Origin: a virus | Lineage: Duplodnaviria; Caudoviricetes | IMG/VR virus record: IMGVR_UViG_3300048502_000015 | Span: 1 to 64,000 of that record | Strand: one strand, 5' to 3' | Length of the DNA: 64,000 nucleotides | Part shown: one piece after another, positions 19,859 through 55,783 of the stretch | Numbering within the stretch: position 1 is the first letter of the stretch | Layout: the number at the start of each line of letters is the position of its first letter | Position numbers and translations under genes: made by a program | Notes under the pieces: model-generated | The model's database searches: none | What the model saw: only the letters and a program-made list of their open reading frames with translations | Told to the model about the DNA's origin: nothing

Positions 19859-21079
19859 TTACACTTTTTGTTCGTCGTAATACGTATGCAAATCTTTCAA
19901 CGGTCCTACATTGAATTGTAGACCAGGATGTTCTATTTGTACAGGCTCAGGGGAATGAGCAACTGTGATATGAGGTTTATAGCCACCTTCAAATCTAGAT
20001 ACAGGGAGTCCACGAGCCTCGGCTTCATTCATCAAGGCTTCTGTATGCTTAATTAGATCATCATTATGGACACGCACCACAATGGGATGAGGTTTTTCGT
20101 CTTCCATTGGAGAAAATGCATCTACGCTTTGAGTAGATACAGGATAAGTTAATCCGCTGCGTTCTTGTACCCAACGCTGATGATCGGGATTAGAAAACCC
20201 ACTAGGACTATAAATCCCCGTAACATGATAACGCTCGGGAGGAGCAAGCTTAGTCCCCTCAGGCCATTGTTGATTCTGGGTCCATTCGTTGATCTGTTGT
20301 TTGGCTTCATCGGGAACCATGTAACTAGGAGCAAACCAATCCCCTGCCGATTTCTTAACGCTCGCAATATGAATTCCGGTTAGTTCTGAAATCTTCTCAA
20401 GCAATCCTCGTTTAGCTAGAAACTTGTACAACACATTCGATTCTGCAAAATCCCCTTTTCCTGCGGCCTGATCTCTTTGTCGTTTAGCATGGATCTGATG
20501 ATAGAATTGAACGGCCTTGTCTGGTTCATATCGTATCAACCTTTCAAGTTTGTCTGCCATCTGCAAAGCCCATGTATAGAATCCATTTTCCTCTTGCTCT
20601 ACATTATGAGCACGAGAATGCTCAGGTGGAACAAACCATTTATCTTCATCTAAACTATAGGCTGATCTTAGTCCCGGCTTGTATAAATCTTCTGGCTTGA
20701 TATCATGGGCCACTACGAAATTCTGAAGCGGAAATGATGTTCCTGGAAGATTCTTGCCGTCAAGATTTCCGACCATAACACCAATCATCTCGGCGCGACT
20801 CCATTCGGGAAAACGCTTTGAATCTACAAATAATGAAACGTCTACATCAGAATCCTGTCCATATTGATATGTCGTAAGAGAACCCGTTAAATACAAGGTT
20901 AGCCATGTTTCAGAATCAGTATATCCAGCCTGTTTTAAGGTCTGATAAACCTCTCGAATAATCCAGTTACGATGCTGAAGCTTTAGTTTTGGCTCAGGGG
21001 ATTCGGGATCATCGAAAACGAGCGGTGATAAACCGGCATGAATAGGATCTAGGATATTCGACCGTTTAGACTTGGCCAT
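19859..21079 (-). CDS. Pol-beta-type nucleotidyltransferase fused to 2H phosphoesterase
   Basis: LTGS..SDVDV (GS + DxD); two HxT motifs YHVT and PHIT; start revised to MAKSK. Confidence 0.8.
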   Translation of the reverse strand: MAKSKRSNILDPIHAGLSPLVFDDPESPEPKLKLQHRNWIIREVYQTLKQAGYTDSETWLTLYLTGSLTTYQYGQDSDVDVSLFVDSKRFPEWSRAEMIGVMVGNLDGKNLPGTSFPLQNFVVAHDIKPEDLYKPGLRSAYSLDEDKWFVPPEHSRAHNVEQEENGFYTWALQMADKLERLIRYEPDKAVQFYHQIHAKRQRDQAAGKGDFAESNVLYKFLAKRGLLEKISELTGIHIASVKKSAGDWFAPSYMVPDEAKQQINEWTQNQQWPEGTKLAPPERYHVTGIYSPSGFSNPDHQRWVQERSGLTYPVSTQSVDAFSPMEDEKPHPIVVRVHNDDLIKHTEALMNEAEARGLPVSRFEGGYKPHITVAHSPEPVQIEHPGLQFNVGPLKDLHTYYDEQKV

Positions 21080-24000
21080 TGTGGTACTCCATCGCGCGCT
21101 GAAGCAGCGTATCTCTGTCGTTGAGAGTCGGGTCGTCCACAACGTCGTTGGTCAGATTTCTGAGCACGGCTCCCAGACCAGCACCCTGAGGAATGCCCAG
21201 ATTGATTAGGTCATTTCCATTCACGGCGATAGCAGATTGTTGAGTAGGATCTTGAGCCGAACGAGATTGCTCGACAAGTCCTCGCATTTGATCAACGTCG
21301 CCATCCCAAGGATTCTTCTTTCCTCCGGCATCAGCTTCTCGAAGAGTTAGAAGATCGTCCGCATTATCCCCTACTTTGTTAAGGAACTTGCGTGCGCCCT
21401 TAGAAGAATTGAAGTGAGGGAACATGTGCATTGCAACGAGAGACTGAATTCTACGGATTCTAGATACAGGATAATGAAGGTTTCTCAGATTGTCTTCAAC
21501 CATTTGGGAGCCAAGGATTTCGTGATCTGCCCCTTGGCCTTCGGCATTCTGGTAGTAATGATTGTATCCATCGGGTCCCGTCCAAGCCGAATTTGGCTTG
21601 CCGATATCATGGAGAAGAGCAGCCAGTCTAAGATCGGGATCAGAAGAATTCTGACTTACATGATCAAGAACGTTTAGAGAATGATCTCCAAGGGTCATTG
21701 AATGATGCTTGTTATTTTGGTCGAAGTCGAAGTTATGAGCTAGCTCAGGGAATAGATGATGAAGAACTCCAGTATCCTGAGCTAGACGAATAGCCCCGGC
21801 AGGATTAGGAGACTGGAATAGCTTATCCAGTTCTTTGTTGATTGCATCAGGCGATTCTCCTCCAAGTTTAGCGGAGTTGTCAATCATCTCTTGGCGAGTT
21901 CTTTCATCCGGAATGAGTCCATGACGAGATGAGGCCACAAGAGCACGAACAAGCCGAGTAGGGTCTTCCTCAAATGAAGACGGATGAGTTGTTCTGAGAG
22001 TAGAACGCTCAATGTCTTTTGCCCCACCAAATGGGTCGATAAGCTTTCCATTATCGAGATTGACGGCCATCGAGTTAACCGTAAAGTCTCTGCGCTCAAG
22101 GTCTTTTTCAACAGGAAGAGTATGATCGACGGTGATCTGTCCTTCTCCTCTGCGCCCGGATTCATACTTGTCTTGTCTCGGAAGAGCAATCTCTACTTCT
22201 GCTCCATGAGTCTTATAGCGATAGACGCCAAACTTCTTTCCGGTAAGATTAACCGAACCCTTAAGCTGGGATAGAGCGTGTTCAACCTCTTCTGGCGGAA
22301 TGCCAGAAACCATAAGGTCGATATCCTTAGGCTCGCGCTGGAGAAGGGCATCTCTTACTGCACCACCAACGACGTAGACCTGTCCACCAGCAGCCTTAAG
22401 GGTACGATAAGCCGACCAAGCAGCCGGGTCCGTAGCTGTCATTGTACGAATGTACTGACCTACGCTTTGCGAGGTAGCAAGTTTTGTCGTATTTCCTGTT
22501 GGGTCTTTGAGTTCCACGCTTGTTACTTCCATCTGAGGATGGCTATAATACCAGAGTTGAATTAAATGTCGCACAGAATATGGCTGATCCGTCATATTCT
22601 GAACGGTTACCTTACCTCCGGGAGCGTAGTATCCTTCTACGATTCCCCCTGGGGTAAACTGGCCGATGATTTCAGATGTTTTAGTTCCTGGATGTCCAAT
22701 TGTAATTGTATCATGCTGAACGTCGAAGATGAAAGGAATATCCGCTTCGATCATATCCTTAGGCATTTTCCCTGCCGCATGAACATACCTCTGCCCTTTG
22801 ACATTGACGAATCCTAAGCGAGTCATTAACCTCGCTCCCTCTTCTGAACCAGCATGAGAATAAACGCCCGGATGATACTCAAGGATCTTCTTGCCCATTG
22901 CATATCCGAGTCCTCTACCAGGAACGGCATTGATCATTACGATTTCTGTTTGATCTCCATCTGGACGAACGCAAGCATATCCAAGAAGCTCCCCATTATC
23001 ATAGCCCCCGTAAAAAACTAGACCGTCATCCCTATCAAATCCCCAAAGGGATGAATACAAGTCAAACCCCTCGACGTTGGTGGCCTCACGGAAGGATGCA
23101 AGCGGGACAGCAGTTGGCCGAGAATCATGTCGTCTAGCAGGAAGCGGATCTTCTAGGTTTCCCGGAACTGGGAAATGCCCATCTTCAATTGGATCGACGC
23201 CGGGATGATGGTTCTGTACATGAAGCATGTATTCCCCAAATGTATCTAGGGGAATGTGGCAAGAAGGACATTCAAAGTTTGTATCCGGCTCTGGATTTTC
23301 CTCTTCCTTAGGTTTCCAATCCGGGTCCCAGCGATCAAAAGTCTCAAGAGTTTCGTCCTTCTTGATCTTGTCGTTGAAGTCTGTTTCTGTGCCAGGATAC
23401 TCGGCTAGTTTGTATCCGAAATCCTTTGCCCAATCTTCTAATCCTCCCAAAAAGGGTTCTTGCTCATACCCGCTGGAGGAAAGGTCATTAGCAGCATTGT
23501 AGCGTACCGTTGCATTAGTTCCTTCAATTTCAATAGTTCCTGCGAATCTTCTAAGTGGTCTTTCGGAAAGTACCAAACCCTTGTCCCACGCAAAATACAT
23601 TGTTCTTTGAGGGCCGAATGAAGATTGGACATTGTTTCCGAATCCGTCAAACTTCCATCCCACCGACTTCCCGTAATCGGAAAAGATTCGGCTGAGTCCT
23701 CGGAGAGCCATATTGCTCTGGACGTTCCATTTAGCTCGTCCCCCAGTAACACTAATCGTTCCGGTAGCGATGGGTCCGTTATGATCTTCAGGGGTCCCAG
23801 ATAGCGCTCGGAGTTGGTCGGTAGAGTGTATCGGAGAGACATGAAGTTGTCCCTGTCCGTAGAAAAATTGGAATTGCTTTGTGTCACTGTCATTTTCGTT
23901 TACCCATGGTTCATCGTGTAGATATTTGTTGTTCATATCCTCAATCGCTTGAGGAGTAGAACCGGGATATGCAGTTGGCCCCATGAGATCTGCCGTTTTA

Positions 24001-24398
24001 CGACCGGCTAGGATATCATCTGCCCTTTTAGCAAACAGTTTAGCACGCGGAGTATCTGGCGTGTTAGTTTTTACTCGAAGATCTTTGAAGAGTTTATGAG
24101 AAGTTCTTTTGAATAGAACCGGCCCAGGATTCTTTCCGGAAGGATGAGCATCTCCAGTGAGATCCACCGCATGAGTCTTATCCGGAGAAACCCAAAAGTA
24201 ATGACCATTCTTGATTCCGACATATCCTCCCCAATGCTTAGTTAACCATTTTGAAACTACGTAGCAATGACCATGACTTAGATTCGGATGGCCAGCGAAC
24301 TTCTCGTGGCGCGTATCGTCCCCGAAAGCTTGCTCGGCAGCATTTCGATAAGTAAGAAGTTTGTCTTGGCTTAAGCTAGTAGGATCAAAATCTGACAT
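21066..24398 (-). CDS. cca: polyvalent protein: papain-like domain, C2H2 Zn, GNAT, class II CCA-adding enzyme + HD domain
   Basis: VVGGAVRD..KDIDL..DLERRDFTVN..EDPTRLVRA..LLHDIGK; N-term GHC..HYF..VDLT; GRGLG..RLGF. Confidence 0.88.
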   Translation of the reverse strand: MSDFDPTSLSQDKLLTYRNAAEQAFGDDTRHEKFAGHPNLSHGHCYVVSKWLTKHWGGYVGIKNGHYFWVSPDKTHAVDLTGDAHPSGKNPGPVLFKRTSHKLFKDLRVKTNTPDTPRAKLFAKRADDILAGRKTADLMGPTAYPGSTPQAIEDMNNKYLHDEPWVNENDSDTKQFQFFYGQGQLHVSPIHSTDQLRALSGTPEDHNGPIATGTISVTGGRAKWNVQSNMALRGLSRIFSDYGKSVGWKFDGFGNNVQSSFGPQRTMYFAWDKGLVLSERPLRRFAGTIEIEGTNATVRYNAANDLSSSGYEQEPFLGGLEDWAKDFGYKLAEYPGTETDFNDKIKKDETLETFDRWDPDWKPKEEENPEPDTNFECPSCHIPLDTFGEYMLHVQNHHPGVDPIEDGHFPVPGNLEDPLPARRHDSRPTAVPLASFREATNVEGFDLYSSLWGFDRDDGLVFYGGYDNGELLGYACVRPDGDQTEIVMINAVPGRGLGYAMGKKILEYHPGVYSHAGSEEGARLMTRLGFVNVKGQRYVHAAGKMPKDMIEADIPFIFDVQHDTITIGHPGTKTSEIIGQFTPGGIVEGYYAPGGKVTVQNMTDQPYSVRHLIQLWYYSHPQMEVTSVELKDPTGNTTKLATSQSVGQYIRTMTATDPAAWSAYRTLKAAGGQVYVVGGAVRDALLQREPKDIDLMVSGIPPEEVEHALSQLKGSVNLTGKKFGVYRYKTHGAEVEIALPRQDKYESGRRGEGQITVDHTLPVEKDLERRDFTVNSMAVNLDNGKLIDPFGGAKDIERSTLRTTHPSSFEEDPTRLVRALVASSRHGLIPDERTRQEMIDNSAKLGGESPDAINKELDKLFQSPNPAGAIRLAQDTGVLHHLFPELAHNFDFDQNNKHHSMTLGDHSLNVLDHVSQNSSDPDLRLAALLHDIGKPNSAWTGPDGYNHYYQNAEGQGADHEILGSQMVEDNLRNLHYPVSRIRRIQSLVAMHMFPHFNSSKGARKFLNKVGDNADDLLTLREADAGGKKNPWDGDVDQMRGLVEQSRSAQDPTQQSAIAVNGNDLINLGIPQGAGLGAVLRNLTNDVVDDPTLNDRDTLLQRAMEYHNGQV

Positions 24399-43750: not shown

Positions 43751-43821
43751 TTGCGACAGAGGGAATTGAACCCTCCTCTAGACACCGTATGAAAGTGTAC
43801 GCCCACCACGGGCTTGTCGCA
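43751..43821 (-). tRNA. tRNA-Met/Ile (CAT), atypical D arm
   Basis: cloverleaf, loop TTCATAC. Confidence 0.65.
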
Positions 43822-43920: not shown

Positions 43921-44334
43921 TTAAACTACGTTTACCCGTCGAGAAGACTTGTACCAATGATAATGCTTAAAATGGCGTCGATTAGCTCGGCCATTTTTGC
44001 CGCAATAAACGCACATTTTGTACTCTCGTGTAACGAGATATGGTTTACGAGGAGGCCAAGGATAGGCCATAACCTCTTCTTCACCAGTCAAATAAGCGTG
44101 TCGCTTATGTCCTTCTCGGGCAGGGCAATACGAGATCTTCTTCTTTTCCTTCTTTCGAGACTTTCCGTTAGAAGGATGATCTAGAATCGGGGGCTGACGA
44201 TCATCTCGTGCTGCCCAGCTATCGGTTCGAACCGTTTTGATAGGGCCTCCTCGAAGGGCGGCTGCTTCTGCGGAACGAACTCTCTTGTTGTCGATTCGTT
44301 TACGAATGTGACGACTTGTAGATTTACGAGCCAT
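43921..44334 (-). CDS. highly basic protein with Cys/His motif
   Basis: strong SD AAGGAG; Arg/Lys-rich; CVYCG. Confidence 0.75.
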   Translation of the reverse strand: MARKSTSRHIRKRIDNKRVRSAEAAALRGGPIKTVRTDSWAARDDRQPPILDHPSNGKSRKKEKKKISYCPAREGHKRHAYLTGEEEVMAYPWPPRKPYLVTREYKMCVYCGKNGRANRRHFKHYHWYKSSRRVNVV

Positions 44335-44476: not shown

Positions 44477-44508
44477 AAGATACCTTTTATAGTCATGCTC
44501 AGGACTGA

Positions 44509-44582
44509 AGCCCATTTAGGGAATCGAACCCTATCTATTTCGCTTTACAAGAGCGATGCAGCACCATTTCTGCATAATGGGC
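44509..44582 (-). tRNA. tRNA-Thr (TGT)
   Basis: cloverleaf. Confidence 0.9.
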
Positions 44583-44589
44583 GATACTA

Positions 44590-44910
44590 TTACAGCTTCA
44601 TTATCCGGGGTTCTGTCCCTATTTCTAGGTGACGATCATCTGTCTCAGTTAGCCTATTTCTAGGCTTCCCTGGCGGATTCTTGACGAGTTGCCCGCTGCC
44701 CTCTACCTGCTATGTCCGTAGGTCTTTGCCCTTAGGATTCGCGTCTTGAGGTTGCATCCTCAGTTCCCATTCGAGGTTCAAGCGCCTTAGCTCCCTCCAA
44801 ATGTTACTTATTTACTGAGTTAGTTAAGCTCATAACCGAGTTTCCTCGGCCAGGATGCCCCGAAATTCCTCTACATATACCTTCTATGCAGCGACCGTCT
44901 TTAACTGTAA
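44590..44910 (-). ncRNA. rnpB: RNase P RNA
   Basis: P1 TTACAGTT/AGCTGTAA, P2 GACGGTC/GATCGTC, P3, CR-I GAGGAATTTCGGGG pairing with CR-V ACAGAACCCCGGATA, GGCAAAGACC, AGACAGATGATC. Confidence 0.85.
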
Positions 44911-44912
44911 GT

Positions 44913-45122
44913 TTAGGAAATTCTTTGAACAACTACTACTTGAGTATCCCCTTTCATGAAGGTCCGGACTACCTTACTCTTGATATTGACCTGTCCAGGA
45001 TGGGCATGAACGATTGCACCAGGACCATACTTGGGGGCCGGTATAACCACACCCAAGTCTTCGTTGTTCCAATCTCTCGTGTATAGCTCTTCTACAAAAA
45101 GAGCCTTAGTATGTTTGCTCAT
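44913..45122 (-). CDS. hypothetical protein (leaderless)
   Basis: TGTGATATACT 6 nt before ATG. Confidence 0.65.
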   Translation of the reverse strand: MSKHTKALFVEELYTRDWNNEDLGVVIPAPKYGPGAIVHAHPGQVNIKSKVVRTFMKGDTQVVVVQRIS

Positions 45123-45140
45123 ATACATAGTATATCACAA

Positions 45141-45229
45141 ATCCTACAGCAAGATTCAAACTTGCGACACCATTTCGATTCCGGGTCCTACCCGGATGAT
45201 CTGTGCTCTGATCACTGAGCTATGTAGGA
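45141..45229 (-). ncRNA. tRNA-like RNA with anticodon arm replaced by long hairpin
   Basis: acceptor TCCTACA/TGTAGGA, D arm GCTC/GAGC, T arm; TCCGGGT-AGG-ACCCGGA. Confidence 0.65.
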
Positions 45230-45368
45230 TGGCCTAGATAGAAACCCGCCGCTTATCTTCGGTCGGTTACGTAGCGACAAATCGCGGGAGATAAGCCCAA
45301 CGAAAACCTTGCCTCCTGGTACTCCCCGGTCATCATGAATCCGAGGGCCAGTTCCACCGTCTATCTAA

Positions 45369-45428
45369 TAGTGATAGGAGAATCGAACTCCAAATTAAGG
45401 GGTCTTCCTTAATCAACCTATATCACTA
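45369..45428 (-). ncRNA. mini tRNA-like RNA lacking a D arm
   Basis: TAGTGATA/TATCACTA stem, T loop TTCGATT, one hairpin. Confidence 0.5.
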
Positions 45429-45479
45429 GCTTTCTACTGAGTTAATTATCATGTGCTGATTCCTGGCGATGAGCCAGAG

Positions 45480-45551
45480 AGGAGTAGAGCGGTTTCGAGC
45501 CGCCTTCTGGGACATGGCAAGCCCCTGTAATAGCCAGTATACGACTACTCC
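45480..45551 (-). tRNA. tRNA-Gly (GCC)
   Basis: cloverleaf. Confidence 0.85.
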
Positions 45552-55384: not shown

Positions 55385-55783
55385 TGGATCATGTCGGAAT
55401 CGAACCGACGTGTTCGGTACGCCTATTAGGTTACTTCTATCAGCTTTGGGGCAGGCTTTAACCCGCCTCCACCAAAGAGTTTATACGATACTCATAAACG
55501 AAAAGCCCCGCTACCAATCTAGCTTTTATTCAGGTCTTTCTAGACGTGCTAGACAACGCTAGAAGACCGACTCTTGTTCTGGTTCCAAGTCAGAGTTGAC
55601 TCATGCAATGGCTAAACCAATGCTAGGAGTGAATCTCCCGCTGTTACCTGATCGCACTTGGCGAATAGGCTTGCCGGAATGTTCACGAGTGAATCGTTGT
55701 CATGTATTGACTGTTTGGTTTATGGTGACCAACCGCTGAATAACACTAACCGCTTCTTACCGAGTCGAATGCCTGTATGACCC
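55385..55783 (-). ncRNA. ssrA: tmRNA
   Basis: GGGTCAT/ATGATCC with G3:U70, TTCGAC, T arm, tag ORF DNDSLVNIPASLFAKCDQVTAGDSLLALV*. Confidence 0.88.

Follow-up and report, generated by a model that had tools for sequence, protein, structure and literature searches.

An RNase P RNA homolog with a remodeled fold in the tRNA array of a tailed phage

Results

An RNase P-like RNA lies within a phage tRNA array

The DNA analyzed here (hereafter, the window) comprises the first 64 kb of a virus record of 160,424 bp that CheckV rates as complete (100%). The record carries genes typical of tailed phages, among them those for a terminase, a portal, a head-like protein, rIIB, ribonucleotide reductase, NAMPT and a GH25 endolysin. 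Between positions 43751 and 59688 (43.7–59.7 kb), the minus strand of the window holds 34 tRNA genes and one tmRNA, and within this array lies the RNA described below (Table 1). The open reading frames that overlap this RNA all encode 45 amino acids or fewer. Upstream, a gap of ~570 nt (44913..45478, minus strand) extends to tRNA-Gly(gcc) and contains a 71-aa ORF without a homolog in any locus examined. The tmRNA is an ARAGORN call with the tag AGDSLLALV, on which the Rfam tmRNA model is silent at its gathering threshold; the syntenic tmRNA of a related phage (L034, see below) has a longer tag that ends in AGDSLLALI.

Searching the window against Rfam at gathering thresholds reported tRNAs only and no RNase P RNA. 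A permissive cmscan of positions 44480..45000, by contrast, matched the class A RNase P model RF00010 at 44586..44910 on the minus strand, across model positions 1–367 of 367 (39.2 bits, E 7.6e-11; E 5.5e-12 for the same match when the whole 160-kb genome was searched). This score is far below the curated gathering cut-off of 100 bits. The fold of the RNA is more stable than that of all 100 shuffled sequences (z = -3.2), and BLASTN of the RNA region, and of the RNA of another phage contig (L003, see below), against 50,697 deposited phage records returned tRNA matches or nothing. The initial annotation had placed a phage-encoded RNase P RNA of 321 nt at 44590–44910, inside the tRNA array, and would have been contradicted by the lack of any covariance-model hit. 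Its coordinates proved exact: RF00010 matches over its full length (E about 1e-11), though under the Rfam cut-off, in a complete virus record and amid 34 tRNAs and a tmRNA. From these comparisons at the sequence level, descent and core structure mark the RNA as a homolog of RNase P RNA, one that lies outside the class A definition of Rfam. A scan for promoters and terminators around it stayed at chance level, with none that stands out, so that co-transcription with the array is only inferred.

Table 1. Features of the RNA and its surroundings, with the P4 strands of four homologs. Coordinates are those of the window; nucleotide n of the RNA is window position 44911-n (nt 1 = 44910; nt 321 = 44590). 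In P4 sequences the bulged U is in parentheses.
Feature	RNA nt	Window position	Strand	Remarks
Whole RNase P-like RNA	1-321	44590..44910	-	321 nt; first to last base of P1
P1, 5' strand	1-8	44903..44910	-	partner nt 314-321, 44590..44597
P2, 5' strand	12-18	44893..44899	-	GACGGUC; partner GAUCGUC, nt 274-280, 44631..44637
P3 hairpin	20-40 (20-26/34-40)	44871..44891	-	RNAalifold; three two-sided changes
J3/4 and P4 5' strand (CR-I)	40-53	44858..44871	-	GAGGAAUUUCGGGG; U48 bulged
P5, 5' strand	54-58	44853..44857	-	CAUCC; partner GGAUG, nt 152-156, 44755..44759
Seven-pair hairpin, invariant GAAA	60-77	44834..44851	-	directly after P5, P5.1 position; three two-sided changes
P8-like hairpin	79-95	44816..44832	-	UUAAC loop; stem covaries in four homologs
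Single irregular helix	103-149	44762..44808	-	replaces P10-P12; same kind in 4/4 homologs
J5/15, P15 and P16 arm	157-159; 161-164/208-211; 165-207	44700..44754	-	J5/15 CAA; P15; P16 arm
11-nt GAAA-tetraloop receptor motif	175-180; 191-195	44716..44736	-	in P16; CCUAAG opposite UACGG
L15 loop	203-207		-	AGGUA; GGU at 44705..44707
P15.1-position hairpin	215-239	44672..44696	-	extra, after P15; covarying
P18 with GAAA loop; J18/2	241-265; 266-273	44638..44670	-	J18/2 AGACAGAU; aligned to RF00010 P18 and J18/2
P19-like hairpin in J2/4	282-293	44618..44629	-	CCUAGAAAUAGG; optional element
J2/4 and P4 3' strand (CR-V)	295-310	44601..44616	-	ACAGAACCCCGGAUAA
tRNA-Thr(tgt)		44509..44582	-	7 nt downstream of the RNA
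tRNA-Gly(gcc)		45479..45551	-	upstream syntenic neighbor of the RNA
Basic ORF		43921..44334	-	137 aa, 36 K+R; about 250 nt downstream of the RNA, past two tRNA genes
tmRNA		55385..55783	-	
CCA-adding enzyme		21066..24398	-	1110-aa ORF
P4 of window RNA				5' AUU(U)CGGGG; 3' CCCCGGAU
P4 of L034 RNA				5' AGU(U)CGGGG; 3' CCCCGGCU
P4 of L061 RNA				5' AGU(U)CGAGA; 3' UCUCGGCU
P4 of L060 RNA				canonical; 5' AAG(U)CCGGA; 3' UCCGGCUU

The RNA and its position are conserved in four phages

Relatives were reached via the phage NAMPT gene and via the shared core motif; searches via the head-like protein and via a basic ORF near the RNA yielded none. Three phage contigs, L034, L061 (the same contig as L057) and L060, carry a homolog, giving four RNAs including that of the window. 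The NAMPT proteins of L034 and L061 are 72% and 62% identical to that of the window phage, and the RNAs of L034, L060 and L061 share 78%, 65% and 58% identity with the window RNA. A block of 46 nt around L15 is identical between the window and L034. Against RF00010, the L060 RNA scores 63.4 bits (E 1.7e-17), and those of L034 and L061 go undetected even in a permissive search, though clearly homologous by sequence. The L034 RNA is missed entirely because of an expansion of ~150–190 nt in its P12-like helix (L034:13060..13255).

All four phages place the RNA between tRNA-Gly(gcc) and tRNA-Thr(tgt), with tRNA-Gly(tcc) and tRNA-Met following. The distance to tRNA-Thr is 3–7 nt across the four, and 3–4 nt in L034, L061 and L060. 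At the other end, the RNAs of L060 and L061 abut the 3' end of tRNA-Gly(gcc); L034 has a tRNA-Trp in between. Other candidates were set aside: two of three matches to the pattern TGCAANNNCAAG...AGGTAGNNNGCAGC (L053 and L054) are chance matches without homology, and the gap upstream of tRNA-Thr(tgt) in L023 shows no homology and resembles coding sequence.

Cells carry class A RNase P RNA as a core gene, and a stretch of bacterial chromosome could have entered the record by host contamination or misassembly. The RNA lies, however, in the middle of a tRNA array in a 100% complete virus record with terminase, portal and endolysin genes, and the same synteny recurs in three other viral contigs. Its variant of the P4 helix (see below), at its own spacing, was found in 0 of about 185,000 species genomes; at wider spacing, only two short contigs of metagenome-assembled genomes (MAGs) among these contain it. 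On account of the synteny, we consider a chromosomal origin refuted for practical purposes. The two MAG contigs, L062 (JAYVGZ010000557.1) and L063 (JANWKP010000389.1), are labeled Pseudomonadota and Nitrososphaerales, and each carries an RNase P-like RNA with a phage-type P4. Four tRNA genes accompany the RNA on L062, and both contigs probably represent viral DNA mis-binned with cells.

The catalytic half is complete and P4 has changed pair by pair

The catalytic half of the window RNA is complete, comprising P1–P5 with the bulged U of P4, ACAGAA in J2/4, J5/15, P15 with its GGU, and J18/2; P1, P2, P3 and both strands of P4, all named in the initial annotation, are thus present. J3/4 reads GAGGAA. 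The bulged U, ACAGAA, the J5/15 adenines and the L15 GGU are invariant in all four homologs, as are the whole AGGUA of L15 and the GCAA at nt 156–159. The surrounding helices have changed in sequence while remaining paired: the seven pairs counted in P1 (nt 2–8) are standard in every homolog, four of them altered on both sides; P2 (seven pairs) shows three one-sided changes in L034 with pairing kept in all; and the P5 pair C57-G153 becomes G-C in L061. The stem that follows P15 reads GCGG/CCGC in the window, GCGU/ACGC in L060 and CUUCCC/GGGAAG in L061.

The P19-like hairpin is lacking in L060 and L061 and is larger in L034. In the window this hairpin (44618..44629) and the distal part of P18 (44652..44665), both on the minus strand, share the identical 12-mer CCUAGAAAUAGG with its GAAA loop. 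At both sites the sequence of L034 is unrelated, so that the repeat seems to stem from internal duplication or conversion in the recent past.

P4 pairs nt 45–53 with 301–308, and all nucleotides of what we take to be the CR-I consensus, GNAANNUCNGNG, are retained. Relative to the canonical helix, three pairs differ, each on both sides, and the bulged U is kept. In what we presume to be the corresponding E. coli numbering, these changes are A-U to U-A at 67-359, G-C to U-G at 68-358 and C-G to G-C at 71-356. Positions 67, 68 and 71 also vary between the domains of life. Positions 67 and 68 adjoin metal-binding phosphates, and both, though changed in the window, are still paired. Across the four homologs, five of the eight P4 pairs are altered on both sides and none is broken. 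Since L060 has a canonical P4, the unusual helix of the window is a derived state, reached via paired substitutions.

A larger set of RNAs agrees with this. Using a degenerate two-strand P4 pattern, whose first scan left positions 67, 68, 71 and 356 free, and with both positions of pair 67-359 unconstrained in the pattern, we collected 22 independent phage or metagenome RNAs, 15 of them from a metagenome scan. Pair 67-359 is Watson-Crick in 22/22, as A-U, G-C, C-G and, in the window only, U-A. The proposal that P4 deviates in a compensatory way is thus borne out, both by the canonical helix of L060 and by the occurrence of all four combinations at this pair.

Covariation across four homologs supports the fold

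Because a MAFFT alignment of the four full-length RNAs misaligned the 3' half, helix strands were located explicitly in each RNA, with boundaries chosen by hand, and pairs were counted on these strands. Among 54 pairs in ten helices (215 cells across the four homologs), no cell is non-standard; 26 pairs are invariant, 8 vary on one side and 20 on both. The P1-P2-P3 and P5 framework alone contributes 25 pairs, eight with two-sided changes and none broken. As a control, 3' partners were slid by 1–3 nt, upon which 38–44% of cells pair, as compared to 199/199 in register. This control is generous, because the structure was derived from these same sequences, and the covariation rests on four sequences only. 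Compensatory changes also mark the helices that RNAalifold recovered independently from MAFFT alignments of two sub-regions, namely P3, both hairpins after P5, P15, P16 and the one that follows P15. Insertions and deletions among the homologs are confined to peripheral helices. The initial annotation had argued for selection on structure from P4; the pair counts across ten helices likewise speak for selection on the fold.

These data also bear on whether the RNA might be a decaying relic, a captured host rnpB that drifts toward loss and has no function. Its low Rfam score (39 bits), the failure of the model to find the L034 and L061 homologs at all, and the large insertions and deletions among relatives are what such decay could leave behind. 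Yet no cell is broken at 58–78% identity, twenty pairs carry compensated changes, and the indels are only peripheral; moreover, the window phage and L034 share the 46-nt block without a mismatch although their NAMPT proteins have diverged to 72% identity, and four phages, each from another sample, keep the RNA in the same place. As far as covariation can tell, decay is strongly disfavored.

The specificity half is reduced, and a putative tetraloop-receptor contact may replace P6

The initial annotation had described the specificity domain as divergent, and it is indeed left unaligned by RF00010, at model positions of about 76–217. It spans only 93 nt (59–151) and contains a GAAA hairpin, a P8-like hairpin and one irregular helix. 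Like P8 in class A RNAs, the P8-like hairpin has UAAC or UAAU in its loop. The irregular helix is highly variable in length, the region between the P5 strands measuring 93 nt in the window and 241 nt in L034. P7, P9, P13, P14 and P17 are missing from the folds of the window RNA. No conserved sequence resembling CR-II/III, the elbow modules of J11/12 and J12/13, could be recognized among the four homologs, and the P6 pseudoknot is absent, with a single unpaired base after P5 and no P17. With the elbow-reading elements unrecognizable and P7, P9, P13 and P14 missing, substrate binding may be weak or different.

Two elements of the RNA suggest what may stand in for P6. Firstly, the hairpin after P5 is the sole GAAA hairpin common to all four homologs and emerges where class A RNAs have a strand of P6; secondly, P16 contains a motif resembling the 11-nt GAAA-tetraloop receptor, with CCUAAG invariant in 4/4 homologs and the opposite strand reading UAUGG in L034 and L060, UACGG in the window and UAAGG in L061. 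CCUAAG/UAUGG is the classical 11-nt receptor, listed for Tetrahymena P4-P6, the Azoarcus intron and the B. subtilis RNase P specificity domain (PMC3494683). A loose form of the receptor pattern occurs six times in the 160-kb genome, which is its chance frequency; support for the receptor therefore comes from its conservation and from the matching GAAA loop, not from rarity. From the site at which the hairpin emerges, we infer a clamp between loop and receptor in place of P6. That this clamp connects the P5 junction with the P15/P16 arm seems to us somewhat better supported than not, and it remains an inference from conservation and co-occurrence.

The phage encodes a CCA-adding enzyme and no recognizable RnpA

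All 34 tRNA genes lack an encoded 3' CCA, and in 30 of them a T immediately follows the end called by ARAGORN. Elsewhere in the window, a 1110-aa ORF contains a CCA-adding/poly(A) polymerase head domain (residues 674–802), an RNA-binding domain and an HD domain (905–998), with ~670 N-terminal residues that belong to no Pfam family. Leader position -1 is enriched in U (17/34, as compared to 25.8% expected; p = 0.002). Bacterial RNase P prefers U at this position.

A search for the protein subunit RnpA (PF00825) in the complete 160-kb phage genome gave no match at E <= 1, as compared to matches in 10 of 14 control genomes. Its absence, previously claimed for the window, thus holds for the whole phage, and because the phage encodes none, a host RnpA is the probable partner of the RNA. 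The initial annotation had also raised, as speculation, the very basic ORF downstream of the RNA as a cofactor, and one could extend this to a self-contained phage RNase P in which a phage protein such as this one takes the place of host RnpA. Besides its composition, the ORF has proximity to the RNA in its favor, and a homolog of 44% identity at the same array position in L061 (L061:1168..1515). It does not, however, resemble RnpA or match any Pfam or PHROG family; neither L034, with a gap of just 340 nt, nor L060 has it next to the RNA; and the atlas offers as look-alikes only phage hypothetical proteins and weak zinc-ribbon folds. With no family match and a syntenic homolog in only one of three RNA-bearing relatives, nothing supports a cofactor role, and we give a phage-encoded partner very little credence. 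The ORF has a CxxC near its end and possibly a C-terminal zinc ribbon.

The lack of a phage RnpA admits another reading, in which the catalytic half serves as a decoy or takeover RNA that captures host RnpA and withdraws or redirects it, its own cleavage being weak or unimportant. P2, P3, J2/4 and P15 contact protein in known holoenzymes. In favor of this reading, these elements are well kept in the phage RNAs, and the specificity domain is strongly reduced and not conserved in length. The nucleotides that serve only chemistry or substrate (the bulged U, ACAGAA, the J5/15 adenines and the L15 GGU) are, however, invariant in 4/4 homologs; 34 tRNA genes, furthermore, call for more RNase P activity rather than less. 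We therefore regard a decoy function as improbable.

Other large phage contigs carry RNase P-like RNAs

The P4-pattern scan identified RNase P-like RNAs in six further viral contigs of 100–231 kb (L002–L007), four of which have the RNA inside a tRNA array. Those of L003, L004 and L005 score 180–191 bits, above the Rfam cut-off, and keep P8, P9, P12, P16 and P18; phage RNase P RNAs thus recur, near-canonical ones included. In all six, P4 has U68-G358, a non-canonical 71-356 pair and a base other than C at 71. Comparison of these sequences hints that small phage RNase P RNAs may share a P4 signature. A further contig, L052, reached via RF00010, has another non-canonical P4, with G68 and a changed 72-355 pair.

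Full-text literature searches for a virus-encoded RNase P RNA found no paper (PMC8172020 concerns CPR bacteria, not a virus-encoded RNase P RNA). The earlier remark that such RNAs are rarely reported in phages is, if anything, understated, as no published report was found. Phage-encoded RNase P RNA appears to be undescribed in the literature and not unique to the genome studied here. Phage annotation pipelines overlook RNAs such as those of the window and its three relatives, given that the Rfam threshold misses them and that a permissive search still fails to detect two of the four.

Discussion

The homology, conservation and fold documented here lead us to conclude, with a probability of roughly 0.7, that the RNA is a genuine phage RNase P RNA, a remodeled derivative of class A that matures the 5' ends of phage tRNAs with host RnpA; its expression, catalytic activity and protein partner are inferred. 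We envisage that the RNA would be transcribed within the minus-strand tRNA array and excised by the tRNA-processing machinery. As it lies 3–7 nt upstream of tRNA-Thr in all four phages, removal of this tRNA leader by RNase P (7 nt downstream of the RNA in the window) would at the same time make the 3' end of the ribozyme itself. The complete catalytic domain would then fold, with the GAAA hairpin after P5 probably docking into the 11-nt receptor of P16 in the role of P6, and would probably assemble with RnpA of the host, which is unidentified. The resulting enzyme could cleave the 5' leaders of the 34 phage pre-tRNAs and of the tmRNA, and so may provide extra or host-independent processing capacity during infection, beside the phage CCA-adding enzyme.

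A bolder version of this proposal is an RNase P lineage that evolved in phages, with a clamp for P6, a minimal elbow reader and tuning to pre-tRNAs without CCA, perhaps free of host protein or active after host shut-off or tRNA-directed defense. We consider this possible but on balance unlikely. If true, tRNA production in this phage would depend little on the host, being carried by the RNA jointly with the phage tRNAs, the CCA-adding enzyme and the tmRNA.

RNase P RNA counts as a core ribozyme of cells, and a viral copy that is clearly maintained by selection extends the translation functions of large phages to the 5' maturation of tRNAs. These RNAs also offer natural experiments in the paired drift of P4, the replacement of a pseudoknot by a tetraloop-receptor clamp, and the near-loss of the specificity domain.

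Among known systems, the window RNA most readily compares with class A (RF00010; E. coli M1 RNA, rnpB), with which it shares the order and pairing of P1–P5, the bulged U of P4, P15/P16 and P18, as well as J3/4 GAGGAA, J2/4 ACAGAA, the J5/15 adenines and the GGU of an internal L15. In RNase P, the GGU of L15 pairs with the CCA end of the tRNA, and the J5/15 adenines contact N-1. The window RNA departs from class A in its score (39 bits, as compared to 100), in its three flipped P4 pairs, in lacking P6, P17, P7, P9, P13, P14 and a recognizable CR-II/III, and in its extra hairpins after P5 (GAAA) and after P15; it is, moreover, viral, and lies within a tRNA array without an adjoining rnpA. The hairpins at the positions of P5.1 and P15.1 and the absence of P6 and P17 recall class B (Bacillus, RF00011). 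A contact between GAAA and an 11-nt receptor is also known from the B. subtilis specificity domain (PDB 1NBS; PMC3494683), whereas in the window the receptor lies in P16, an arm of the catalytic domain. Also unlike class B, which has no P16, P15/P16 is of the class A type, with GGU in an internal loop rather than a P15 hairpin, and P10.1 was not seen, though no separate RF00011 score is available.

Minimized RNase P RNAs, such as that of Mycoplasma fermentans (276 nt) and type T of Pyrobaculum, have a shortened or lost specificity domain and are still active. Like them, the window RNA keeps the catalytic domain at the expense of the specificity domain; those RNAs are cellular and work with cellular proteins, whereas the window RNA is viral and retains a P8-like hairpin and one long helix. 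It shares its setting with the other phage-borne RNAs (L003, L004/L005, L007, L002/L006 and L052), likewise slimmed class A RNAs in or beside tRNA arrays, on contigs of 80–231 kb. None of these has the 11-nt receptor, and the lineage formed by the RNAs of the window, L034, L061 and L060 is a separate, more remodeled branch.
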